64,000 nt of DNA from Acidobacteriota bacterium. GTDB taxonomy: Bacteria > Acidobacteriota > Blastocatellia > UBA7656. A model generated the notes under the pieces. That model ran no database searches, was not told where the DNA came from, and saw nothing but the letters and a program-made list of their open reading frames with translations. Below, piece by piece: positions 2,519 to 54,125 of this stretch. The translations under genes and the position numbers were made by a program. Location of the stretch: NCBI GenBank assembly GCA_040754075.1, contig JBFMDH010000003.1:14307-78306 (forward strand), written 5' to 3'. How positions within the stretch are numbered: position 1 is the first letter of the stretch; the number at the start of each line of letters is the position of its first letter.

Positions 2519-3625
2519 TTATGGTTGTTGCGCCAGGGCTTTAACGCGCTCGATGCTTTGTTTAATCGTCGGGTCGTTGGTCACGGAATAGGCTTTCTCG
2601 TAAATTCGCAAAGCCTGTTGATACTGTTTATCGCTTTCGTAGATGTAGGCGAGTTCAGACATTGCCGCCACCGAATCGGGAATTAATTGAATAGTGATTT
2701 CCAGCGCTTCCATCGCTTTGCGCGTCTTGCCGCTACGCGAAAGGGCGATGCCATAATAGAGCCATGCCTGCCCGTTATCGGTGTTTTCTTTCGCGAGTTT
2801 TTCGAGCGGGACAATCGCTTTCTCGAAATTTTTTGCGCCAAGATAGGCGCGCCCTAAAATGTTGGCGGTCTTTAGGTCATCACGCGCCGCCTGCAATTGT
2901 TCTGCGACGCTTGCCGCTTCATTCCACAAGGCATTTGCGGCACTCACGTTTGCGCCGAGCTTACGGGCTTTTCGCATTAAACTTTCGGCAAGCAATTCAA
3001 GCGCGTTGGCGTCTTCCGCATTCGCCTTTATCGCTTCACGAAAAGCCGGAATGGCGCGGTCATCATCCTCTCTCTTGAAATACATCAAGCCAAGCAAGTA
3101 GGCATTGGTTCCCGCGTCTTTGGCATTTTCATTTTTAGTTGCCGCAAGCAAAGGCAAGGCTTCGTCGTAACGTTCAAGATAATAATAAGCGCGACCGAGA
3201 GCCGCGCGCGCGCTCGGGTCAACCTCGCGTTTGGCTTTGGTATTTAAATCAATGTAGCGTTTGAGCGGCTCAAGGGCTTTATCGTATTCGGCGAGCAGAT
3301 AATGCGATAGCCCTATGGTGTAGAATGCACCGGCAATATCCGGGCTTTGCGGCGATTGCACTTCGAGGAGTTCGATGGCGCGCGCAAGCGGCATGCCGAC
3401 TCGTTTGTAACGTTTTAAATTGAATTCGCAAAGCCCGATGTAGTACCAGGCGCCGGCAAGGTCTGGGCGCTCTAAAACGAGGTCTTGAAATTCACTGAGC
3501 GCGGCGCGATAGTCGCCTTTTTTATAGTAGGCGACGCCTCTGTCCCAATCGGCTGCAAGCGTGGAATTGACCAGGAGTAGCGTCAGTAAAATGACCGCTG
3601 AAAAACTTTTCACGAAGGATTGCAT
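2519..3625 (-). CDS. Secreted tetratricopeptide-repeat (TPR) protein
   Basis: Signal peptide MQSFVKSFSAVILLTLLLVNSTLAA followed by repeated W/Y-x-x-G-x-x-x-Y-x-x-A-L TPR units (AWYYIGLCEF, AFYTIGLSHY, AYLLGLMYF, AWLYYGIALS). An alternative upstream ATG is at 3670. Confidence 0.7.
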   Translation of the reverse strand: MQSFVKSFSAVILLTLLLVNSTLAADWDRGVAYYKKGDYRAALSEFQDLVLERPDLAGAWYYIGLCEFNLKRYKRVGMPLARAIELLEVQSPQSPDIAGAFYTIGLSHYLLAEYDKALEPLKRYIDLNTKAKREVDPSARAALGRAYYYLERYDEALPLLAATKNENAKDAGTNAYLLGLMYFKREDDDRAIPAFREAIKANAEDANALELLAESLMRKARKLGANVSAANALWNEAASVAEQLQAARDDLKTANILGRAYLGAKNFEKAIVPLEKLAKENTDNGQAWLYYGIALSRSGKTRKAMEALEITIQLIPDSVAAMSELAYIYESDKQYQQALRIYEKAYSVTNDPTIKQSIERVKALAQQP

Positions 3626-3689
3626 CAGGCAAAGATTATGGCACGATGCGAATGTCGCGGCAAAGACCATTGTTCGTCATTTTCGTCGC

Positions 3690-5613: not shown

Positions 5614-8541
5614 TTACTGCGATACCCAGCCTTCGATTTTTCTCACCACAGGCAACATCTGCGGTGGGTCATAATTGGTCATTATAATCACCGTATAACC
5701 GCTTTCAGGAAACATGCTGAGACTTGAAGCAATGCCCGGTGCGCCGCCGTTATGTCCGAAGGCGCGTTTGCCATTGACCCGCATATCGCCAAATCCATAA
5801 GCGTATCTGGCATCGCCCCCGCCCATTGCAACTTTTCCGGTTGTAAACAGCTCTGTCAGTTTCGCGCTCAACAGTTTATTGGCGGTGAGCGCACTGGCGA
5901 ATTTCAACAAATCTTCCGGCGTTGAATAACCACCGCCCGCAGGTCCCCCGCGATTTGGACGCGAATCGCTATTCGCTTTGCGCATGGTCAGGCGTTCGCC
6001 TTCGTTGTCGCTCATAAGCGTGTAGCCCATCGCCATATTCGGGGTATTGGCGGTCATTGCAAAACAATCGCTACCTGTCATCCCAGCAGGTTTATAAATA
6101 TGCTCACGCACATAATCGAAATAATTTTGTCCCGATACTTTTTCGATAATTGCGCCTAACACGATAAAGCCCGAATTGCTGTACGCGAAACGCGCGCCGG
6201 GTTCAAACCGCAACGGTTCATCGGCAAAGAGCGCCAGATAATCCGCTACGGTTTTAATCTGCGCGCGCCGCTCATCGAATTTTTTATTCCAGTAAGAGCC
6301 AAGCCCCGATGTATGGGTGAGCAAATGATGAATCGTCACTTTGTCGCGCACATCAGGGTTGGGATAATCGGGCAGATATTTTCCGACCTTATCATCAAGC
6401 GCGAGTTTTCCGGCTTCAACGAGTTGTCCAATGGATACAGCGGTAAACATTTTATTCATCGAACCGAGATTGAATTTGGTATCCACGCGATTGGGCGTAC
6501 TGGTAGATTTCACCGCCATTCCGTAAGCTTTTTTGAAAATCGCTTTGCCGTCTTTGGCAATCAACGCGACGCCGGAAAATTTATCGGCGGCAGCCTGCGC
6601 ATCGAGAAACTTTTCAATCTCTGCGAGCATTTCGGACTGAGTCAATTTTTTTGCAGGGGTCGCGGGACGATCAGGTTTACCCGTCGCCGTTTCGTTGCCG
6701 TCGCTCTCAGTTGCCGGTTGCACCTGAATCATATCAACGGCGTGCGGCGGCGTTGGTTGCACCTGTAGGGTGAGGTTGAGTAGTCGTCGGTCTTTTTGGG
6801 TTTGAATCTGTGCAGTGATTTCCAAATCCGAAGAACTCACGACGCGATGAACTTTCACGCCACCGCTCTGGTTATAAAAATCCATATCTTTTTCGGCGAT
6901 TTCTATACCATCGCCGCGTTCGCGATGAAACTGTTCCATAGTTTTCAAATCGCCCGAATTGAGGGCTTTTACAAACGCCGCAAAAGTTTTTCCCGCAGGT
7001 GTATCGGGCAACTTCACTTCATCGTTTGAGGCATTCGATTGAGCCGTTGCGCCGACGTTTGCCGGAGTTGAAGCCGGGCGGGCGCGAATATCCATAATCT
7101 GATGCGGCGGGTTGGGCGCAACTTCAATGGCAAAAGTTATCCAGTTGTTATCCTTCTTTTTCTGCGCCAGCACTTCGATACCGGTCGCTGAAGAACTGAC
7201 TACTTTTGCGATTTTCAAGCCGCCATTTGCGGCAAAAAAGCCCATGTCTTCCTGCGCGTTGTCCGGGTTGCCGCCATTTGCCTGATGAAATTTTTTCAAC
7301 TCATCGAGGCTTCCGGTATTGAAAGCTTTTAAGAATGCGGCAAGCGTTTTTCCGGCAGGGGTGTCCGGCAATTTCACTTCATCACTTTGTGCGTTGACTT
7401 GATTGACTGGTGAAGATGTCGCAGTTTGCGGCGCATCAAGTTCGCGTTGCAATGAAGCCGCGAGTCCGTTGAGTTGCTGTTTTCTCTGGTTATCATTGGT
7501 TTTTGCCGCGATATTTTTGAGCGCCGCGACCTGCGCGACCTTCAACGCCTGCTCGGCTGGCACTTCAACATCGGGTTTAACGCCAGTGCCTTCCCAGTTG
7601 GTTTTGGTGATGGGATTGATGGCGCGGCCTGCGGGAACGCCGATGCCGAAATGTTCATTGATGCGACGAAAATCTACAGGGTGCGCGCCGCCGCCAGTGG
7701 TTTCACCGACGATGGTGGCGCGTTTCAGATTTTTCAAATTGTAGGTGAACTCTTCGGCTGCCGAAAAGGTGCGGCGACTGGTCAACACATAAACCTCGCG
7801 CTTTTCGCCATAGCGTTTGCCGCCGAGTTGTTCACGTGTCCAATGTTCAGTGGTTTTATCGGTTGGTCGCCAGTAAATATCATTGAGGTGAGTGCGTTTA
7901 TCGAATAAATAGCTGCAAATCAAGGCGACCATTTGCGGCTGCCCGCCGCCGTTTTGCCGCACATCGAAAATCAATGCCTCGGTGTTGGCTAAAAAATTCA
8001 TCGCCGCAGCTAAGGTTTCCGCGCCCCACTCGGCTTCAACAAACCCGCGAAAGTCGATGTAGCCGATGTTGCCTTCCAATCGTTCGACCTTTTGAAATCC
8101 GAAATTGTTAAAGGCGACCTGGGCGCGCTCCTGTTCAATGTCTGCTTTGCTCGGCTCTTTCAAATCGCGAAACGCTACTGGGCGAAAGACGACTCTCAGG
8201 TGTTTATCGTGACTGACTTCCTGCAAATGATTGGTCAGCGTCACTGCCAGCGCCGCAGGGTTGGTGATGGCATCGTATTCTTTGCGCTGCATACGTTCAC
8301 GAATCGCCGCTTCCATTTTTTTTGCGACTTCGGGAAAAACATAGGCGGCGTTTAACTGCTTCAATGCGCCTTCGATAACCTGCACTCGCGCGGCGGCGTC
8401 AAGTTGCGGCGCAGTCTGCTGCGCAATCGTGTTTGTGACTAAAGCATTGAATAAAACCGCCGCGATAGTCATTGCACTGATATTGATTCGCAGAATATTT
8501 AAAAGTTGTTTCAGGGGTTTCATTATTGATTTACCTCTCAA
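5614..8541 (-). CDS. Secreted multidomain fusion: S41 (tail-specific/IRBP-like) peptidase, two copies of a ~100-aa repeat domain, and a C-terminal beta-lactamase-fold serine hydrolase
   Basis: Signal peptide present. S41 motifs GNIGYIDFRGF and LIFDVRQNGGG, with a TSRRTFSAAEEF serine region. Two internal repeats each start DEVKLPDTPAGKT(L/F)AAF. The C-terminal domain has SMNK (SxxK), YSN (YxN) and GHNGG motifs of class-C beta-lactamase/PBP-like hydrolases. Confidence 0.75.
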   Translation of the reverse strand: MRGKSIMKPLKQLLNILRINISAMTIAAVLFNALVTNTIAQQTAPQLDAAARVQVIEGALKQLNAAYVFPEVAKKMEAAIRERMQRKEYDAITNPAALAVTLTNHLQEVSHDKHLRVVFRPVAFRDLKEPSKADIEQERAQVAFNNFGFQKVERLEGNIGYIDFRGFVEAEWGAETLAAAMNFLANTEALIFDVRQNGGGQPQMVALICSYLFDKRTHLNDIYWRPTDKTTEHWTREQLGGKRYGEKREVYVLTSRRTFSAAEEFTYNLKNLKRATIVGETTGGGAHPVDFRRINEHFGIGVPAGRAINPITKTNWEGTGVKPDVEVPAEQALKVAQVAALKNIAAKTNDNQRKQQLNGLAASLQRELDAPQTATSSPVNQVNAQSDEVKLPDTPAGKTLAAFLKAFNTGSLDELKKFHQANGGNPDNAQEDMGFFAANGGLKIAKVVSSSATGIEVLAQKKKDNNWITFAIEVAPNPPHQIMDIRARPASTPANVGATAQSNASNDEVKLPDTPAGKTFAAFVKALNSGDLKTMEQFHRERGDGIEIAEKDMDFYNQSGGVKVHRVVSSSDLEITAQIQTQKDRRLLNLTLQVQPTPPHAVDMIQVQPATESDGNETATGKPDRPATPAKKLTQSEMLAEIEKFLDAQAAADKFSGVALIAKDGKAIFKKAYGMAVKSTSTPNRVDTKFNLGSMNKMFTAVSIGQLVEAGKLALDDKVGKYLPDYPNPDVRDKVTIHHLLTHTSGLGSYWNKKFDERRAQIKTVADYLALFADEPLRFEPGARFAYSNSGFIVLGAIIEKVSGQNYFDYVREHIYKPAGMTGSDCFAMTANTPNMAMGYTLMSDNEGERLTMRKANSDSRPNRGGPAGGGYSTPEDLLKFASALTANKLLSAKLTELFTTGKVAMGGGDARYAYGFGDMRVNGKRAFGHNGGAPGIASSLSMFPESGYTVIIMTNYDPPQMLPVVRKIEGWVSQ

Positions 8542-9091: not shown

Positions 9092-11722
9092 TTAAAAACT
9101 GAATCGGATGCCGCTTTCGATTCTGCGTCCGGGCAGAGCGGCTGTTGCCTGCCCGTAAAAAGGCGATGTCTGAACGCCTGTAAAATTGATGCGATTGGGG
9201 TGATTGAAAATGTTGTAAGCCTGAACGTAGAGTTCACCGCGCCAGCGTTTGTTGATGCCGCCGGTGCCACCCATACCGCCAAGGATGTCGCTATCATTTG
9301 AGCGAATGATTTTTACCTGGGGACCGCCTGCGGCTTCTTTCGGTTTGCCGAATCCGAATCCCCAACCAAGGCGCATGCCCATATCGAAACGCGCCGCGCC
9401 ACGGGCGCTGTTGCGACCGACGCTCGCAGGACGGTCGTTGCTTACGCTGTCGCCGTTATTATCAAAGCCTGTGGTGATGTTGTAAGGCGCAGCGGAACTT
9501 GCCTGCAAAATCGTGCCGATGCGAATCGCGCCGGGAAATTGATAATTGAACATCGCGAACAGATGATGCCTTGTATCATAAGCCGCCGGTCCGCGTTCGG
9601 CGCGCAAATCCGCATTGTTTGCCGGGAGGCTGAACGGGCTATCGGTTTCGTTTATCGCTTTCATATAAAAATAACCGAAAGTGGCAAACAAATATCTTTG
9701 CGGCGGGCGCGTGAAATTCATGTTGACGTTGACGCCAAATTGTTGCCGCGAAGCGTACGCCGTTGATTCGACCTGCGTGATGTTGCCAAATTGCGCGTCG
9801 GGGCGAACGCCATTCACGGGCGCATTGAGATTATGTCCGCGCAAAGTGTGAACGCCGCGTTGATAGGAATAATTGGCGTTGAGGTTGATGGTTGGCGCAA
9901 GCTGTCTTTGTAAGCCAACCGAAAACTGCTCAAGGTAAGGCAGATTCATTTCCGGGTCAGCAACAATTTTACTTGCCGGTAAAATGATTTGCGCGCCGCC
10001 GGTCAACGGATTTGGGAAGCCCGGATTTTGCACAATCAAATCGCGTTGCCGTGTACCATCGACGCGCAGAATCTGTTCGGTGATTTCCGAACCGACCCAG
10101 CCGTAAAAAATTCCCGCCCCGGCGCGAAACGTGGTCTTGCCGTCTTTGAATGGCGACCACGCGATACCGAGGCGCGGCGCGAAATTGTTTTTATCCCGGA
10201 CGTTGTTCTGCCATTCGTAGCGCAAGCCCAGACTGAGTGACAGGCTTTTATGCAATTTAAAATCGTCCTGTAAATAAGCGCCAAACTGATGCTGCGAAAA
10301 TTCCACACGCGGGTCGCCCGAACGCTTGGAAAAGGTCGTCGGTCGCCCGGCGCGAAAATCATCAAGGCTTGCAAAGATGAATGTGCCATTGGCATTGACG
10401 CGCTCATTGCTCTGATAATTGCCGAATTCATAGAGCACGCCGGTGCGCATGGTGTGTTTGCCGATGACGAAATCGATGTTGTCGGCGACTTCCCACTCGA
10501 AGACCTCGCGCGTCCCGGAAATCTGCGCGCCGCCGCTACCAAAGGCATTCAACACCTGAATGGTCGGCGCTTGTGAAGCCGACGATTTATCAATCGCTTG
10601 CCAGCGCGCCTGAAAGAGAATTTCATTGACCAGTTTTTTACCAACCGCGCCGGTGTCTGCAAATCTGAACAGATGTTCGACGGTGTCATTGGTGTAGGCG
10701 CGTTCCGGCAAATCGAAATCGCCGACGCCGAGGTTATCAAGTCGTGAAGCGTTGCGCTGATATTCGGTTCTCAAAGTATGGGTTTTATTGAGCGCGTGTT
10801 CGATTCTTGCGGAAAAATTCAAAGTCTTTGACGGGCGACGCGCGACATCGTTGAACGCGCCGTCGGGTAAAGCGGCAACAATGGTTTTCGATTCATAAGC
10901 GTTATTGCCATCGGCATTCAAAAACAGCGACGTGCGATTTTTCCAGAGCGGTCCGTCGAGTGAAAACCCGAAGCGGCGAAATTGTTCGGGGGCGCGAAAC
11001 GGCGCAAAGGCGTTGCGCGCATTTAACGACTCATCGCGAAATCCGAAATTCATAGAGCCGTGCCAGTTGTTGACGCCGGGTTTGGTAAGGATGTCAACGG
11101 TGATGAAATCTGCTTCATGATTGTCCGCCGAATAAGGATTCATGCGAAAGCGGATTTCGCGGATTTGCGATTTGGGCGGTAATTTCCCGCCGCGAAAGCC
11201 GTTGACTTTAAAACTCGCGCCCGGTCCTGCCATATTGCGTATAGCCTGCTCGAATTCTTCGGGGTCGTCCGGCAGTTGCGAAATTTGCTCTGCGGTTAAA
11301 ACATTGGTGAAAGCGTTTTTGCCATTATCGAGACCTTTTTCCTGGGCGCTCTGGGCGATGGTGACATTTTCTTTTACACCTTCGATTTCCATTTGCACTT
11401 CAATTTTATTGTTACCTGATTTCAAAGATTTATCTTTGATTTCCCGGGTGATGAAACCGGCGACCGACACGCGCAATTGAAAGCCAGCGGTGGCAAGGCG
11501 CAGGAAAGTGGCTTCGCCGCGCTCGTTGGTTTGCGCGGTGTGCTCTTTGCCATCGCTGGTTTGCAATTGCAATGTCGCGGCGACAATCGCTGCGCCTGTC
11601 GGGTCAACCACGGTGATACGCAAGCTGGCATCGTTTTTTGATTGCGCGGGCGCATTCAAAATGGCAATGGCGAATATGAGAAGCAGACTGATGATTTGCG
11701 CAAAGCGTTTTGTTTTTAGCAT
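9092..11722 (-). CDS. TonB-dependent outer-membrane receptor with N-terminal carboxypeptidase-regulatory-like domain
   Basis: Signal peptide [29 protein letters not shown]-terminal [22 protein letters not shown]...ERGEATF Cna-B/CarD-like fold, a plug-like region, a long beta-rich body, and a C-terminal aromatic residue (…GIRFSF). Confidence 0.75.
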
Positions 11723-11851
11723 CGAAATACCTCTGAGCAGATAGCGAACGATGAATGATGAATTTAAGATAAAATCCAGCCGATTTTTGCTTCATCACTC
11801 ATCGTTCAAACTCAAATCTCTGGACACCGGACACCGGACTCATGACTTGGG

Positions 11852-12775
11852 TTACTTTTTGAATTTTTCAGCTTTCAGTGGCGGATTGATTTTGAACTTG
11901 GCGATTTCAGTCTCTTCGCTGACCGCGCCATTGGTGGCGCGGGTAATTTTGTGCGGCAACCAGATGCCATCAACCGCGCGATAATCGGTGTAGAAAATCT
12001 GTATCTCGATTTCGTTGGGTTTTTCCGGGGTGGCTTTAGCGGCGTCGGCTTGTTTTTCAATCTCTTTGGCTCGTTTATGCGCTTCTTCCTGACTGCCGGC
12101 TTGGAAGGATTCGGTTCGCACCATGATTTTTGGAGCGAAACCGCGATAACTGAGCATCAACGGTTGATGGGTTTTCTGGTCTAGAAACAGTCGCGCTGCA
12201 AAGCCATCCGCGCCGCGGGCTTCGATGACATCGGCTTTGCCTTCGGGGGCTTCGGCTTCGCCCGCGTAGGTGAATTCGATTTGGTAAGCATCGGGAACCG
12301 TAAGCAACCAGGCTAAAAGATTTCGCGCATAATCATTTTTCATGACGCGCAGTCGCTGCGCTTTAGCTTTTTCATCATCACTACCAGGGCGACGCATGAC
12401 GACCACGCCGCTACCCGAAGAACTCTGGTCTTCCAGCAGTTCGTTGCCATTAAATCCGCCGATGCGGGTGATGTGTGCTGCGCCGCCCATCATCGTCAGG
12501 TTTTCGGTGAGTTTGAATTTATCCGGGAACAAAAATTCCATTTCAAACTCGCCTTCCATTTCCGGGGCATTGGGCGCGAGAATGCGCCGGAATTTCCCGG
12601 TGCAGGAAAGGCTTTGGACGGCTTTCAATTTGGCTTCCCCGCCGAGCGCCTGCCGCGCCTGGGTGAGCAATTCCTGAGCGCGCGCTTTATCGCCGTCACT
12701 GGCGAGCAAAATCGGATTGGACGCGCCGGTAATCGCAAAAATAACAATAAGAATCAATTCAATCATCTTGTGCAT
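11852..12775 (-). CDS. Secreted hypothetical protein (LolA-like / outer-membrane lipoprotein-sorting-like, tentative)
   Basis: Signal peptide MHKMIELILIVIFAITGASNPILLA. No catalytic motifs recognised. The family assignment is tentative. Confidence 0.4.
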   Translation of the reverse strand: MHKMIELILIVIFAITGASNPILLASDGDKARAQELLTQARQALGGEAKLKAVQSLSCTGKFRRILAPNAPEMEGEFEMEFLFPDKFKLTENLTMMGGAAHITRIGGFNGNELLEDQSSSGSGVVVMRRPGSDDEKAKAQRLRVMKNDYARNLLAWLLTVPDAYQIEFTYAGEAEAPEGKADVIEARGADGFAARLFLDQKTHQPLMLSYRGFAPKIMVRTESFQAGSQEEAHKRAKEIEKQADAAKATPEKPNEIEIQIFYTDYRAVDGIWLPHKITRATNGAVSEETEIAKFKINPPLKAEKFKK

Positions 12776-13058
12776 AACTCCATTTCTCCTTCAACTGGTT
12801 TGGTCAGAACGCGCTGCCGCGACATCCCTATTAACGCACAAAATCGAAAAGAAGTGGTTAAGGATAGGCAAAGAGATTGTTAAGGATGTAAAAAGATGAC
12901 CGCCTTCACTCAGCTAAGGCAAATGGGTTGATTGAAGGTGAAGCGTAGAACAAACGCCGTGAAGCATTCAGCCCGATCAGGTATGGTCTGGCTTTTTCTT
13001 TCTCACTTTGCCGACCGGTTAGCTTAGGCTGATGCTGACGCTACTTTCTGCAAACAGG

Positions 13059-13108
13059 TCCCTGAATTTTCGCATTCGCGTTCTGCTCCAGAGTCAGGGC
13101 ATTTTTTT
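13059..13108 (+). terminator. Putative intrinsic terminator (stem CCCTGA / TCAGGG plus T-run) in an ORF-free region
   Basis: tCCCTGA...(28-nt loop)...TCAGGGcattttttt. The loop is long, so confidence is low. Confidence 0.3.
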
Positions 13109-13172
13109 ATCATTTTGCATCGCTTTTATTCCGCTTTGCGTCAGTGGCTATAGGCTTAAATTTCCGTGCCTG

Positions 13173-13202
13173 CCCCACTTATTTGAGTGGGGCTTTTTTT
13201 AT
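13173..13202 (+). terminator. Strong intrinsic terminator with no upstream plus-strand ORF (candidate sRNA 3' end)
   Basis: GCCCCACT-tatttg-AGTGGGGC followed by TTTTTTT. This is an 8-bp GC-rich stem with a 6-nt loop and 7 U residues, plus-strand specific. Confidence 0.6.
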
Positions 13203-13380
13203 TGCAAAATCTTTTGGTTCAAACTCTCAATAACGTTGACCTATTACCTCCAAGACCGGCGGTCTAAATGATGACTTAAACCAGATTTGATTGTTCAATT
13301 ATTCAGTGCCATTTTGCATCGTCAGTTTCAGGTTTCCCGTCTACTAATCGCGTAAACCGATTTTGAAAGGAGCAGGCATT

Positions 13381-14010
13381 ATGGCGAACTTTACGAAATC
13401 TGTTATCAGCGTTCCGGTGTTTGGAAAAACCACGATCACCATGCTTGGCGGCGGCCCGCCTCCGGCGAATCTGGCGCTTGATATTAGACCGGATAATCCC
13501 GGTTTGGTTTCTGCAACCCGGACAGCCACCCGATTGGGGCCCGAATATGATTGGGAGATTACCGGTAAATTTCCCGGAAAGACCCTGCTGCAAGCCCTCA
13601 TTCCCGGAACCGCGAGTACCTATTCCGCTCCCCTTGAAGTAGTGGTAACCGGGCGCATCACGATTAAATTTTCAGCCAATGGCGAAGGAACCATGACCTG
13701 TGTGGGCTTAGGAAATTTCAAGGTGTTAGGTCAACCGGGAAGACAATACCCCAAAGATATAACCGTTGATCCGAATGCCGACCCCACCGTCAAAAAGACG
13801 CTTCATCATAGTAAAGAATTTAATGTCGATATGCCCTTTGCAATACGAATCTGGGGACAGATGGGAATTTTTATTCACGAATTTCCTGATAACCTGAGCG
13901 AAAATGGCGGGCCCTCTGCCGGGTGTATTCACGTTGGCAAACCCAATTCAAAGCGCGTCTTCGACTATATCGTTACCCGAACGCGCATTACCATCGAATA
14001 CCCTTGGTGA
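13381..14010 (+). CDS. L,D-transpeptidase-like (YkuD-fold) domain protein
   Basis: AGGAG SD upstream of the ATG at 13381. The C-terminal GIFIHEFPDNLSENGGPSAGCIHVGKPN resembles the YkuD catalytic H...(S/T)HGC(I/V)R motif, with substitutions. Confidence 0.5.
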   Translation: MANFTKSVISVPVFGKTTITMLGGGPPPANLALDIRPDNPGLVSATRTATRLGPEYDWEITGKFPGKTLLQALIPGTASTYSAPLEVVVTGRITIKFSANGEGTMTCVGLGNFKVLGQPGRQYPKDITVDPNADPTVKKTLHHSKEFNVDMPFAIRIWGQMGIFIHEFPDNLSENGGPSAGCIHVGKPNSKRVFDYIVTRTRITIEYPW

Positions 14011-14348
14011 ATCGTAGAAGGAATGAACGGTTGTGAGACTATCCGTTGCTTGAGATAGCCAAACATCTGCCTATGTTGGCAGCACAATCGCCGGACTCAA
14101 GGAAAGCGCCGAGGGAAAAGTTCAGCCCTTGATGAAAACAAATCTGTCTTTGAGCAGCAAAACGGCAAAGGGCTGATTCCCGATAAATGAGGTTGAAAAG
14201 TTGCAATATGGGCAGCAAGCCGGGCGGCGCAATTTACGACTCAAACGCTAAAACCGAACCTCCTCCAATGGTAAATAATATTGAGGAACCGGGTAGTGAT
14301 TAGGGTTCTCAATGATTATCCGTATTGCCCGGTTTTCTCTACCTCGGT

Positions 14349-15086
14349 CTATCTTGACGCCGCCAGTGTCGCAATGGAGTTGCAGGCGCAGGCTTCGACG
14401 CCGTAGTTAAACCCATTTCTGAAAGCCGCTGTGCGTTTTTGCGAAGTGCCGTGGGCGTTTTTTGCATAGATGCTGATGGCGGTGTGGTCACCGGCTTCGA
14501 TGAGTGAACTGATGGCTTTCGGAATATCATTTGTCTCAAGACGTGGCGTGCGACTTTCGCTTCGGGCAAAGGCTCCGGCAAAACAATCGGCTTTCAACTC
14601 TTTTTCAATGTCGTAACGATTCGCAGAGATGCGCCCTTGTCTTTCAAGCAGGGTTTGCACCGCGTGTCCCCATTCGTGGGCGAGAATCGTCACTACCGCA
14701 AAATCGCCATGCTTTGCCATCTGAGCGTAAAAGAAATTGTAGTCATAATAAATCGCATGGGCTGACGGAATGTACAGGGCGTTGCGCAACGGTTGGCTGG
14801 CGCGATAGACCGTGGGCGCAGTGTAACGCAAACCGTTGGCGGCGAAAACCTCGCGCCAGTAAGCGTTGATGTAAAAGCCGGCGGTTCTCACCAGTTCATC
14901 AACTTCCCAGTTGGTCGGCGCAGCCATTTCGGTTGTGAAATTGAAATCGGCAGACGAAAAAGCGTAAACCGCAACCGGCTCAATCGGTCTGGTTGAAAAT
15001 GGCGCACCGGTTGACGCAAGACTGAACAGGGCGAATAAACCAACCAACGCATAAAGCACAACATTTCGTTTCACTCGTTTAATCAT
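14349..15086 (-). CDS. Putative neutral zinc metallopeptidase (YpfJ-like)
   Basis: HEWGH (HExxH) motif. N-terminal membrane anchor or signal MIKRVKRNVVLYALVGLFALFSLA. Confidence 0.6.
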   Translation of the reverse strand: MIKRVKRNVVLYALVGLFALFSLASTGAPFSTRPIEPVAVYAFSSADFNFTTEMAAPTNWEVDELVRTAGFYINAYWREVFAANGLRYTAPTVYRASQPLRNALYIPSAHAIYYDYNFFYAQMAKHGDFAVVTILAHEWGHAVQTLLERQGRISANRYDIEKELKADCFAGAFARSESRTPRLETNDIPKAISSLIEAGDHTAISIYAKNAHGTSQKRTAAFRNGFNYGVEACACNSIATLAASR

Positions 15087-15604: not shown

Positions 15605-15665
15605 TTTTTACTGAGCGTAAAAAATCAGCCGCGCCTTTTGCATCAACTCAAAGGACGCGGCTGAC
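15605..15665 (-). terminator. Intrinsic terminator of the lipoprotein gene (minus strand)
   Basis: On the minus strand: TCAGCCGCG...CGCGGCTGA, a 9-bp stem, followed by ATTTTTTAC. Confidence 0.5.
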
Positions 15666-24825: not shown

Positions 24826-24856
24826 AGCGCCATAGAGGACGCCTGAGTTTGGCGTC
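24826..24856 (-). terminator. Stem-loop terminator downstream of the permease gene
   Basis: Perfect 11-bp stem AAGAGGACGCC / GGCGTCCTCTT. On the minus strand it is followed by GGCGCTTTTGTTT. Confidence 0.45.
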
Positions 24857-24875
24857 CTCTTAAACCGCGCCGCGC

Positions 24876-27548: not shown

Positions 27549-28562
27549 CTATTCAATCAACGCTTCAATGACCCGAATCTTTTCGGCAAGCGTGCCCGCA
27601 TTTGGAATCGGCACCAGTGGCAGCGTCGCGCCGTATTGCAAAACTTCATCGAGTTGAGCGCGGCAAAATTCCATCGTTCCGCAAATCGCCACGGCATCAA
27701 CCATTGCATCGCTCACCGCGTTAATCGCTTCTTTGCGCCGACCCATTTGCCAGAGGGTTTGAATTTGCCCGGCAACATCGGCAAACCCCAGACGCGCAAG
27801 CGATTCTTTATAAAAATCGCCCATTCCGCCGACATAATAGGCAAGCGGCAAGCGCGCCGCTTTTCTTGCGCTCGCCGCATCATCGGAAACCATAGTGTTA
27901 ATGAAAGGCGCGATGTCGATTTGCTTGACGTCACGACCTGCTGCTTCACAACCTTTTTGAATTTCGACAATGCCTTCGTTGAACTGCGTGCGCGCCCAGT
28001 GCGTGGGCAACCAACCGTCGGCGATTTCGCCGATTTGACGAAGGCTTTTCGGCGTCAGCGCAGCAATGTATATCGGCAAATCTGCCCTTACGGGTTTAAA
28101 TCCAAGCTTGAATCGTTGCAACTGAAAACACTCACCCTCGAAATCCGTCACTTCACCTGCGAGCAACAAACGAATGATTTGAATGGTTTCTTTGAGGCGC
28201 GTGAGTGGTTTTTGGAATGGCACGCCGTGAAAATCTTCGATGACGCGCGCCCCGCTGGTTCCAAGTCCCAGGCGAAATCGCCCGCCGGAAATTTCATCAA
28301 GGGTTGCGGCGCTCATCGCCAGCACCGCAGGGGTTCGCGAAAACACATTGACGATGCCTGTGCATAAATGGATTTGTTTGGTATGAACCGCGAGTTCCGT
28401 GAGTGTCGTAAAGGCATCGCGTTCCCAGGCTTCGGGAATCCAGATGCAGTCGTATCCGCAACCATCTGCGGCTTTCACACATTCAATGAGTTCGCGACGG
28501 TCGAAGCCGCTTTTATCAAAACCAGGCAAGCGTCCAAGATAGAGTCCAAGTCTTCGCGTCAT
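27549..28562 (-). CDS. LLM-class (luciferase-like) flavin/F420-dependent oxidoreductase
   Basis: MTRRLGLYLG... TIM-barrel LLM fold motifs (GYDCIWIPEAW, GGRFRLGLGTSG). An alternative upstream ATG at 28652 would add 30 aa. Confidence 0.6.
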   Translation of the reverse strand: MTRRLGLYLGRLPGFDKSGFDRRELIECVKAADGCGYDCIWIPEAWERDAFTTLTELAVHTKQIHLCTGIVNVFSRTPAVLAMSAATLDEISGGRFRLGLGTSGARVIEDFHGVPFQKPLTRLKETIQIIRLLLAGEVTDFEGECFQLQRFKLGFKPVRADLPIYIAALTPKSLRQIGEIADGWLPTHWARTQFNEGIVEIQKGCEAAGRDVKQIDIAPFINTMVSDDAASARKAARLPLAYYVGGMGDFYKESLARLGFADVAGQIQTLWQMGRRKEAINAVSDAMVDAVAICGTMEFCRAQLDEVLQYGATLPLVPIPNAGTLAEKIRVIEALIE

Positions 28563-28783
28563 CGTTTGCACATTAAACCGAAAACCCGCGATGCGGTAAA
28601 GTCGTGATGAAGGCGTGGCAGATTCGCGCCTTGTTTTAAAAATATTTTTCATTTCGTTTTGCTGATTTCATTAGCAGTTACCTGCAACCAAAGAAAAATT
28701 GAATGAAGTATAAAAATAACTTTCTTGACTCTGATAAAACCGGAATGCTATACCATAAGCGTTTGATAAACAGTCAAAGGCTT

Positions 28784-28870
28784 ATGAAAAAAACCATGTG
28801 TTCAATGTGTTGTTGTTGTTGCATGTGTCGCGGACGAGCGCGCGAAGCCTTTGATGGAGGTGCATCATAA
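28784..28870 (+). CDS. Polycysteine leader peptide (MKKTMCSMCCCCCMCRGRAREAFDGGAS), candidate cysteine-sensing attenuator ORF
   Basis: Seven Cys codons (TGT/TGC) in a 28-codon uORF, including five consecutive. It lies 125 nt upstream of cobA-cysH-cysC-sir. In-frame alternative starts are at 28796 and 28805. Confidence 0.55.
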   Translation: MKKTMCSMCCCCCMCRGRAREAFDGGAS

Positions 28871-28918
28871 ATTAAGTTCTACTAAATTCTGAGTAAACTC
28901 AGAAGGAATTTAAGAAAA

Positions 28919-28960
28919 CCCACCACAGGCTTCAAAACCTGCGGTGGGTTTTTCGTTTTT
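28919..28960 (+). promoter_or_regulatory. Intrinsic terminator (attenuator) between the Cys-leader and cobA
   Basis: CCCACCACAGG-cttcaaaa-CCTGCGGTGGG followed by TTTTTCGTTTTT, 37 nt before the cobA ATG. A second small hairpin TTCTGAG-taaa-CTCAGAA sits at 28876-28893. Confidence 0.55.
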
Positions 28961-28996: not shown

Positions 28997-29800
28997 ATGA
29001 GCAACAGGCAGGCACACACCGGCAAAGTCTATTTAATCGGCGCAGGTCCGGGCGATGCGAAACTCCTGACCATCAAAGCCGCCGAGAGTATCGCCGTAAG
29101 CGAGGTTATCGTTTACGACTATCTGGTTAATCCCGAAATCCTGGCGCACTCGCGACGCGGCGCAGAATTGATTTACGTCGGCAAACGCGCCGGTGAACCT
29201 TCCATCTCGCAAACTCAAATTAATCAAATCCTCATCGCACACGCCCGCGCCGGAAAAATCGTTTCGCGTCTCAAAGGCGGCGACCCGTTCATCTTCGGAC
29301 GCGGCGGCGAAGAGGCTGAAGCCCTGGTTGAAGCCGGTATCGCCTGGGAAGTTGTGCCGGGAATTTCGTCGGGCGTTGCCGCTGCGGCTTACGCAGGGAT
29401 ACCACTAACGCATCGCAACTATGCTTCAAGCGTTGCTTTCATCACCGGGCACGACAGCCGCAAAAATCGCCCTGCTGTCGACTGGCAAGCCGCTGCGAAT
29501 TTAGCCGACACCCTGGTGATTTTTATGTGCGCCGAAACCATTAAACAGATTGCCCGCGCGCTCGTTGCCGGCGGGCGCGCGCCGTCAACGCCGATTGCCA
29601 TCATTCGCTGGGGAACTTACGCGCATCAGGAAGTCTATGCGGGAAAGCTCGCAGATTTGGCGAATGATGACGGCGAATTTTTAGACATCAAGCCACCGGC
29701 GATTGCCATTGTTGGCGAGGTGGTCGCGCTCAAAGAAAAATTGAACTGGTTCCATCATCAGGTCTTTGAATTTGGACTAGCCGAGGTTGCAGGTTTTTGA
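28997..29800 (+). CDS. cobA: Uroporphyrinogen-III C-methyltransferase (siroheme synthesis)
   Basis: VYLIGAGPGDAKLLTIKA...GKIVSRLKGGDPFIFGRGGEE matches the SUMT (tetrapyrrole methylase) signature. Confidence 0.85.
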   Translation: MSNRQAHTGKVYLIGAGPGDAKLLTIKAAESIAVSEVIVYDYLVNPEILAHSRRGAELIYVGKRAGEPSISQTQINQILIAHARAGKIVSRLKGGDPFIFGRGGEEAEALVEAGIAWEVVPGISSGVAAAAYAGIPLTHRNYASSVAFITGHDSRKNRPAVDWQAAANLADTLVIFMCAETIKQIARALVAGGRAPSTPIAIIRWGTYAHQEVYAGKLADLANDDGEFLDIKPPAIAIVGEVVALKEKLNWFHHQVFEFGLAEVAGF

Positions 29801-40513: not shown

Positions 40514-40582
40514 CGGTAACTTGCAAAAGAAAGCAAAAGCAAAAGCCGTCATCAAGAAAAAAAGATGACGGCTTTTGAATTT
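40449..40582 (+). promoter_or_regulatory. Four-segment transcription attenuator of the ilv operon
   Basis: Segment 1 CCGTCAT (40449-40455, inside the leader ORF). Segment 2 GATGACGG (40509-40516, overlapping the leader stop). Segment 3 GCCGTCATC (40544-40552). Segment 4 GATGACGGC (40563-40571) followed by TTTTGAATTTT. Pairings 1:2, 2:3 (antiterminator) and 3:4 (terminator) are mutually exclusive. Confidence 0.65.
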
Positions 40583-53962: not shown

Positions 53963-54125
53963 CCCCGCGATTAACAACATAAAAGGCTAAAGTGAGCAGT
54001 CGGCGCTTTAGCCTTTTGTATTTTGTGAAGCTGATTTTTTGCGGGATTATCATTGAAACTGATTGAACAAATCACCGAAGCCTCGATGGGGCACGATTCA
54101 ATACCTTGAAACGCCGTTGGTTTTA

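Follow-up and report, generated by a model that had tools for sequence, protein, structure and literature searches.

Does the gap that separates two divergently oriented genes in an Acidobacteriota genome encode a small RNA (sRNA) and, if so, which part of it? The question arises in a 64,000-nucleotide (nt) stretch of contig JBFMDH010000003.1 of the Acidobacteriota bacterium assembly GCA_040754075.1 (hereafter the window, to which all positions refer unless another locus is named), in which a gene for a 307-amino-acid (aa) hypothetical protein and a gene for a YkuD-domain L,D-transpeptidase-like protein (LDT) are separated by a region free of open reading frames (ORFs). A sequence-only reading of this gap had pointed out two plus-strand intrinsic terminators with no gene to terminate and had proposed a plus-strand sRNA gene. 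Comparative analysis supports such a gene, but as a different unit with a different terminator from those argued, namely a conserved non-coding element at 12890-13003. We put the chances at about even that this element is a genuine RNA gene, belonging to a previously undescribed family of terminator-ended sRNAs in Blastocatellia-like Acidobacteriota. The features originally described are real; they are in no statistical excess, one of the two terminators is weak and a third had been missed. The gap and the parts of the element are the following.

12776-13380 (605 nt): ORF-free gap between the 307-aa gene (minus strand) and the LDT gene (plus strand)
12890-13003, plus strand: conserved ~114-nt non-coding element, candidate sRNA (nhmmer, alignment A4, covariance model R1, folds)
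12901-12907 with 12934-12940: P1 outer stem (full hairpin 12901-12940)
12943-12946 with 12954-12957: P2, with loop AGAACAA
12958-12969: conserved single-stranded linker
12970-12993: P3/terminator hairpin
12970-13003, plus strand: terminator T1, composed of P3 and a U-rich tail (-10.8 kcal/mol; hairpin AGCCCGATCAGGTATGGTCTGGCT followed by TTTTTCTTTCT)

The gap extends over the full interval between the two genes, and position 12775, previously taken as the end of the neighbouring gene, is the start codon of the 307-aa gene. It holds no credible ORF, as the sequence-only reading had stated. The longest candidate, a 79-aa ORF at 13032-13271 that spans both of the terminators flagged initially, matches no Pfam family, lacks any homologue in a set of 5.8 billion proteins and was left uncalled by the annotators of the metagenome-assembled genome (MAG) as well. 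The remaining ORFs in the gap are at most 31 aa long and lack Shine-Dalgarno sequences, and a tRNA/tmRNA scan identified no genes.

The case for the element is comparative. Using nhmmer, 12903-12999 was matched to positions 705-801 of locus L026, which belongs to Blastocatellia MAG092, with an E-value of 7.8e-8; this is a reciprocal best match and the only significant match in the window (the first match seen had covered 12933-12997 and L026 735-799). Among further loci of the L026 clade, matches were also obtained at L028 1395-1505 and at L029 3350-3474, a sequence that L030 shares without any difference; both L029 (at 2630-2745) and L030 additionally have a second, weaker copy. The copies in these four other loci represent three further lineages, L029 and L030 having the same sequence, and the family as a whole comprises four independent orthologues and one degenerate paralogue. 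Identity over the core is 79% between the window and L028 and 72% between the window and L026, while the adjacent gene is only 45% identical at its third codon positions. None of the reading frames stays open through all members, stop codons differ in position and substitutions show no 3-nt periodicity. According to R1 the 64-kb window contains a single copy; the 5-kb locus L029 contains two diverged ones. The plasmid collection gave no match, and the viral contigs gave eight chance matches to the core motif, none of which was recognised by the covariance model. Locus L039 is too short to reach the position of the element.

All copies are located upstream of, and divergent from, an orthologous operon encoding the 307-aa protein and a TonB-like outer-membrane protein (OMP), in the same strand sense. 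The genes that follow the element are unrelated to each other, being LDT in the window, a 220-aa ORF in L026 and a 140-aa ORF in L029, while the L028 element is followed by the end of a convergent arabinofuranosidase gene. Since the divergent position is fixed while the downstream gene differs in each locus, this comparison of loci rules out a cis-acting leader. A terminator with nothing to terminate, the feature that had drawn attention to the gap, recurs in four lineages.

At L029 2635-3472 and L030 277-1114 (both minus strand), a 140-aa gene has a diverged copy of the element on either side, both in direct orientation. Identity between the pair in L029 is 46-48%, and the downstream copy looks degenerate; the 140-aa protein of L029 and L030 carries a C-terminal Cys/His-rich motif.

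Structurally, the members share a plus-strand fold that ends in a terminator. Covariance model R1 was built from alignment A4 (five sequences) and gives a score of 104 bits. Standard pairs occupy 87.8% of the paired cells of A4, compared with 28-45% in controls that shift the 3' partners by 1-3 columns. The P1 outer stem, CGCCUU(C)/(G)AAGGUG, is conserved and the long P1 hairpin forms in all four orthologues, with an inner hairpin sequence that is different in each. P2 has the family form GCGU-AGAACrA-ACGC, and one of its pairs changes from G-C to C-G in two sequences. Because of one G·U pair in P1 that never varies and several G·U/U·G pairs in P3, the fold would exist on the plus strand only, and many of the one-sided changes in A4 are compatible with G·U pairing. 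P3 with its U-rich tail is found in the window, L026, L028 and L029a, and is weaker in L029a and L029b. In the window this terminator, T1, consists of the hairpin AGCCCGATC-AGGTAT-GGTCTGGCT (eight pairs and one C·U mismatch) followed by TTTTTCTTTCT. Absent from the initial list, it is the only conserved one among the three plus-strand terminators of the gap, and the differences among its orthologues preserve base pairing. The L026 copy ends in the plus-strand terminator GAGCCTGACCAGAAATGGTTGGGCTT followed by TTTTTT (771-796, 11 pairs, T6); T1, with its mismatch and interrupted U-tract, is weaker than its orthologues (-10.8 kcal/mol versus -12.4 in L028 and -14.6 in L026).

On the operon side, the element adjoins a second conserved sequence. 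The features concerned, together with the genes on either side of the gap, are listed below.

12814-12899, minus strand: conserved block, putative promoter/operator (blastn against relatives)
11852-12775, minus strand: 307-aa hypothetical protein gene, signal-peptide-like N-terminus, heading the conserved operon (ORF list)
9092-11722: CarboxypepD_reg/TonB-like outer-membrane barrel gene, second in the operon (Pfam domains)
Between the barrel and S41 genes: small protein gene, third in the operon
5614-8541: S41 peptidase/beta-lactamase fusion, last listed gene of the operon (domain matches)
13381-14010, plus strand: YkuD-domain L,D-transpeptidase-like gene (LDT), 209 aa (Pfam PF03734)

The 307-aa protein has no Pfam match and 394 homologues, the closest being ~66% identical, and synteny of its operon is kept in L001, L002, L004, L005 and L028. 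The gene beyond the gap, on the far side of the operon, is different in each of L001, L002, L004 and L005. Scans of genome and metagenome contigs with the 307-aa protein alone or the LDT protein alone returned no match. When the gap was compared by blastn with L001, L002, L004 and L005, a single conserved block was recovered, 84-89% identical over 72-81 nt, next to a protein that is only ~66% identical in the loci compared. From 12900 on, the gap has nothing conserved in these four loci, and relatives that lack the element contain no analogous antisense terminators. In the orientation of the operon the block reads TTTTACATyCTTAAC-N16-CTTAACCA-N17-TGCGTTAATAG, also written CTTAAC-N16-CTTAACC-N18-GCGTTAAT; it carries the direct repeat ATCCTTAAC with a period of 22 nt, and, ~45 nt before the start codon of the 307-aa gene, an extended -10-like box, TGnGTTAAT. 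The pattern occurs once in the window and was matched in L001, L002, L004 and L005 and in L024-L027, four loci obtained from the block-pattern scan with one genome per GTDB species (positions L001 4621-4675, L002 776-830, L004 4892-4946, L005 4895-4949, L024 6221-6275 and L026 402-456). At 84-93% identity the block is conserved far above the adjacent coding sequence, and it is probably the promoter/operator of the 307-aa operon, comprising an activator site and an extended -10 promoter. Its distal edge abuts the 12890-13003 element in the window. Two other identities were rejected by eye: for the block to be an extracytoplasmic function (ECF) sigma factor promoter, its AAC-to-CGT spacing of ~20 nt is too long, and an integron attC site would require an R-box consensus that is not matched.

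Two side observations concern this region in the relatives. Tandem 11-nt repeats, CTGTGACCkAA, are present in two to three copies between the block and the sRNA-like element (L026 ~530-560; L028 ~1560-1590 and L029 ~3600-3640, both on the minus strand) and absent from the window; they are possibly a binding array of the response-regulator type. Locus L025, from a 727-kb contig labelled 'uncultured Clostridia bacterium' (CAZTUB010000001.1), carries the block at 93% identity over 42 nt together with a TonB-like OMP gene homologue that is 64% identical in nucleotides over 1.2 kb; this contig comes from a co-assembled MAG and may carry the wrong taxonomic label.

Taken together, these observations would fit a plus-strand non-coding transcription unit of ~105-114 nt, from 12890/12900 to 13003, transcribed away from the operon, possibly from the conserved block acting bidirectionally, and ended by intrinsic termination at T1. 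A -10-like box, TGTAAAAA, read by eye at 12887-12894, would place the transcription start near 12901; a sigma-70 scan identified no plus-strand promoter in the region. The product could be a trans-acting sRNA that base-pairs by means of the conserved stretches left unpaired in its fold (GGUGAAGCG, AGAACrA and GAAGCAUUsAGCC), possibly under the same regulation as the uptake operon next to it. The two terminators further downstream, T2 and T3, would catch read-through from T1, thereby producing nested 3'-extended isoforms ~210 and ~300 nt long and shielding the LDT gene behind them, which was apparently acquired horizontally. The full scheme, in which an sRNA with nested isoforms and three terminators is co-regulated with the TonB-like uptake/peptidase operon through a shared bidirectional CTTAAC-repeat region, is put forward tentatively, with a probability appreciably short of even.

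A number of results weigh against this interpretation. The family of the candidate is small, with only 4-5 members. R1 recognised no copy in L001, L002, L004, L005, L024 or L025, all of which have the operon; with the element missing from several loci that keep the same operon, it is, on this comparison, dispensable or often lost. Between the close relatives L028 and L029 core identity (67%) is barely above that of synonymous sites (63%), and the L029 copies fold poorly (z-scores of +1.0 and +0.75). Covariation in A4 is limited to two pairs with double changes, no more than in shuffled alignments. The distance between element and block is 150-235 nt in L026, L028 and L029, the two abutting in the window, and the sequences preceding the copies in these four places revealed no promoter in common. 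Duplex folding against ten neighbouring translation-initiation regions yielded no target (z-scores from -1.8 to +1.0). The proposed back-up role of T2 and T3 derives from one genome.

The terminators that prompted the question lie beyond the conserved element.

13172-13193, followed by seven T at 13194-13200, plus strand: T3, strong terminator (9 pairs, GC-rich, -15.7 kcal/mol)
13060-13108, plus strand: T2, weaker terminator, with seven T at 13102-13108

T3 (GCCCCACTT-ATTT-GAGTGGGGC, then seven T) was found where it had been placed, and is unidirectional, the minus strand having no T-run. T2 does have a stem and a run of seven T, but its stem is weak and such a structure is expected by chance; it can adopt a 5-pair stem with an 8-nt loop (13084-13101, -4.1 kcal/mol) or a branched structure (13060-13099, -11.2 kcal/mol). 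Under a loose definition, terminator-like sites occur about as often as in shuffled sequence, with 5 observed versus 4.7 expected in 11500-14500 and 52 versus 53 ± 7 in the whole window. Under strict criteria the T3 hairpin is the sole site in 64 kb, dinucleotide shuffles giving 0.68 ± 0.9, and the corresponding expectation for one 600-nt gap is about 0.006. T3 is notable mainly through its position, considering also that similar hairpin-plus-T structures stand at real gene ends in this genome (in the window at 15626-15665, 24829-24868, 40545-40576 and 53982-54016).

Conservation ends at 13003, ~200 nt short of 13202, the end of the interval flagged initially, and 13004-13202 is not conserved. 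The wider segment 13004-13380 has no counterpart in any related locus compared, in the plasmids or in the viral contigs. Tblastn of the proteins encoded upstream of the operon in relatives gave no match in the gap, and a six-frame translation of the gap compared with all loci showed only the signals of the conserved element, arising from nucleotide identity, and no coding remnant. Segment 13004-13110 folds like shuffled sequence (z = -0.27). The possibility that 13004-13110 and 13109-13202 are decayed tandem copies of the element was rejected, the match of R1 to 13111-13204 reaching only 6.9 bits (E-value 0.07 in 800 nt), which is terminator-driven and not significant. An exact 12-nt direct repeat, CATTTTGCATCG, occurs on the plus strand at 13111-13122, directly after the T-run of the weak terminator, and at 13310-13321, 60 nt upstream of the LDT start codon; roughly 0.01 such repeats are expected by chance in a 600-nt region.

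That T2 and T3 serve as back-up terminators for read-through is the most economical but least supported step of our proposal, and two comparably plausible alternatives remain. One is close to the original suggestion, a 100-300-nt transcript ending near 13200, and holds that T3 forms the 3' end of an independent, lineage-specific sRNA of ~85-95 nt, beginning at ~13110-13120, or of 200-300 nt with a start further upstream. T3 is the best canonical terminator of the whole window with no plus-strand gene upstream to terminate, a TATCAT -10-like box is present at 13108-13113, and 13109-13202 folds much better than shuffled sequence (z = -4.0). The z-score, however, comes almost entirely from the terminator hairpin, one such hairpin per 64 kb is about the level of shuffled sequence (0.68), there is neither a -35 box nor a plus-strand promoter call, resemblance to Rfam families is confined to the terminator and far below threshold, the match to R1 is not significant, and no homologue of this unit was found in the related loci, plasmids or viral contigs. 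We regard such an orphan sRNA as unlikely, albeit a serious competitor for T3.

The other alternative attributes T2 and T3 to the history of the gap, as relics or insulators without an RNA of their own, which would be either the orphaned 3' end of a gene lost here or sequence that arrived with LDT and protects it from transcription entering from upstream. The distribution of LDT bears on this explanation. Homologues of its protein number only 21, spread thinly through Acidobacteriota, Pyrinomonadaceae and Microcystis in mutually unrelated contexts, and in the contig of the closest (77%) transposases lie near the gene and the gap upstream of it measures 680 nt; with homologues so few, scattered and differently placed, the gene looks horizontally mobile and without a conserved leader. 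Nothing resembling 12900-13380 was found in the loci of those LDT homologues whose DNA was compared. Also in favour of a relic, synteny breaks off on the far side of the promoter block, where the upstream neighbour differs in every relative, and 13004-13380 matches nothing. On the other hand, the gap retains no coding trace of the relatives' neighbouring genes, and a perfect 9-pair stem with an intact run of seven T looks maintained rather than decaying. We consider this origin improbable, to the same degree as an orphan sRNA.

The LDT homologues include one in Microcystis aeruginosa and one, 58% identical, in a Pyrinomonadaceae MAG (L006 5001-5639, L007 3317-3955), where the genes for ClpV (TssH) and VgrG flank it in a type VI secretion system (T6SS) cluster that also holds DUF4123 and PAAR genes. 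This setting suggests that the LDT family may be a T6SS effector or a cell-wall-remodelling accessory protein.

A further explanation concerns the conserved element itself, which could be a feature of the DNA, such as a short dispersed repeat, a recombination site or a protein-binding region, rather than a gene for an RNA. It is situated exactly at the synteny breakpoint, it is present in some operon-bearing lineages and absent in others, and in L029 and L030 two direct copies flank the 140-aa gene. Against this, the hairpin with its U-tract and the G·U pairs are features of one strand only, which speaks for a function as RNA; the low identity of the two L029 copies indicates neither a recent duplication nor a pair of att sites; only one copy is present in the 64 kb of this genome; and no integrase or transposase is near it in the window. 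An RNA gene appears to us the much better reading of the element, a purely DNA-level feature being quite improbable.

Least probable, and in our judgement very unlikely, is that the whole gap is a long LDT leader with the terminators acting as attenuators under riboswitch or leader-peptide control: the three terminators are indeed all on the LDT strand and upstream of LDT, no canonical promoter was seen between T3 and the LDT start, a leader-peptide attenuator is apparently used elsewhere in the genome (28787-28948) and 13167-13176 is complementary at 9/10 positions to the LDT Shine-Dalgarno region (13369-13378), but LDT homologues do without such a leader (lying 25 nt after ClpV in L006/L007 and 16 nt after another small gene in L008), the element travels with the 307-aa operon and not with LDT, 12780-13385 contains no leader peptide with a Shine-Dalgarno sequence or regulatory codon runs, no riboswitch family matches, T3 is 180 nt from the start codon and complementarity of this quality arises by chance 14 times within the gap, this pair included.

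The putative attenuator just mentioned is located at 28700-28960 (plus strand), between a luciferase-like monooxygenase gene (27549-28652, minus strand) and a tetrapyrrole-methylase gene (28997-29800, plus strand). A small ORF at 28787-28873, preceded by TTGACT-N17-TATACC, encodes MKKTMCSMCCCCCMCRGRAREAFDGGAS, with eight Cys within the first 15 codons, and a strong hairpin at 28920-28948 (~-18 kcal/mol) followed by TTTTTCGTTTTT stands just before the TP_methylase gene (siroheme/uroporphyrinogen-methylase type). The arrangement at 28787-28948 looks like a cysteine-codon leader-peptide transcription attenuator.

How does the candidate sRNA compare with known systems? Screening the whole window with Rfam 15 (4227 models) at gathering thresholds gave no matches, and neither did L026, L028 and L029 at E-values up to 1. 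At E-values up to 10, the covariance check of 12700-13450 that the sequence-only reading had recommended produced only sub-threshold matches driven by the terminator, the best being to Spot 42 RNA (RF00021) at 13112-13201, with 23.4 bits versus a gathering threshold of 80. That segment resembles Spot 42 in having a GC-rich terminal hairpin with a U-run and a small hairpin before it. Identity is confined to the terminator, however, and 14 nt stand in place of 44 model positions, so the segment is not a member of the family.

Acido-1 (RF01686) and Acido-Lenti-1 (RF01687) are non-coding RNA candidates from Acidobacteria (PMC2864571); they come from the same phylum and, like the present element, are candidates from comparative genomics only, but neither matches the gap at E-values up to 10 or L026, L028 and L029 at E-values up to 1. 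A 2022 review lists only four annotated sRNAs in the whole phylum Acidobacteriota (PMC9029176, Table 1). If our proposal is correct, the element would be one of the earliest cases of a regulatory sRNA with a known genomic partner from a phylum almost without annotated sRNAs. Acidobacteriota are abundant in soil, and a conserved, terminator-ended RNA candidate linked to an outer-membrane operon of the nutrient-uptake type would offer a starting point for studying post-transcriptional regulation in this phylum; covariance model R1 could be used to annotate the element in MAGs. The scope of the finding is limited, the element being of an ordinary kind, its family small and patchy and its function only proposed.

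Closer parallels are found among characterised sRNAs of other bacteria. OmrA/OmrB and RyhB/PrrF are sRNAs that control TonB-dependent receptor genes, and the position of the element near a TonB-like outer-membrane uptake system recalls them through context only; the element has no Rfam match, and its complementarity to the initiation regions of the OMP and 307-aa genes is not above that of shuffled sequence. In Escherichia coli, OxyS-oxyR, GcvB-gcvA and SgrS-sgrR exemplify trans-acting sRNAs that are intergenic, end in Rho-independent terminators and are divergent from a linked gene. There is no homology to these in sequence or structure, the element stands next to a transporter-like operon instead of a regulator gene, and the host belongs to the Acidobacteriota. 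The element nonetheless shares with them a length of ~100 nt, an ORF-free intergenic site, several hairpins with conserved unpaired stretches, a 3' hairpin with a U-tract, and divergence from a conserved neighbour with the other neighbour variable. By this analogy, it behaves like a member of the familiar class of ~100-nt, terminator-ended intergenic sRNAs, standing outside any described family.

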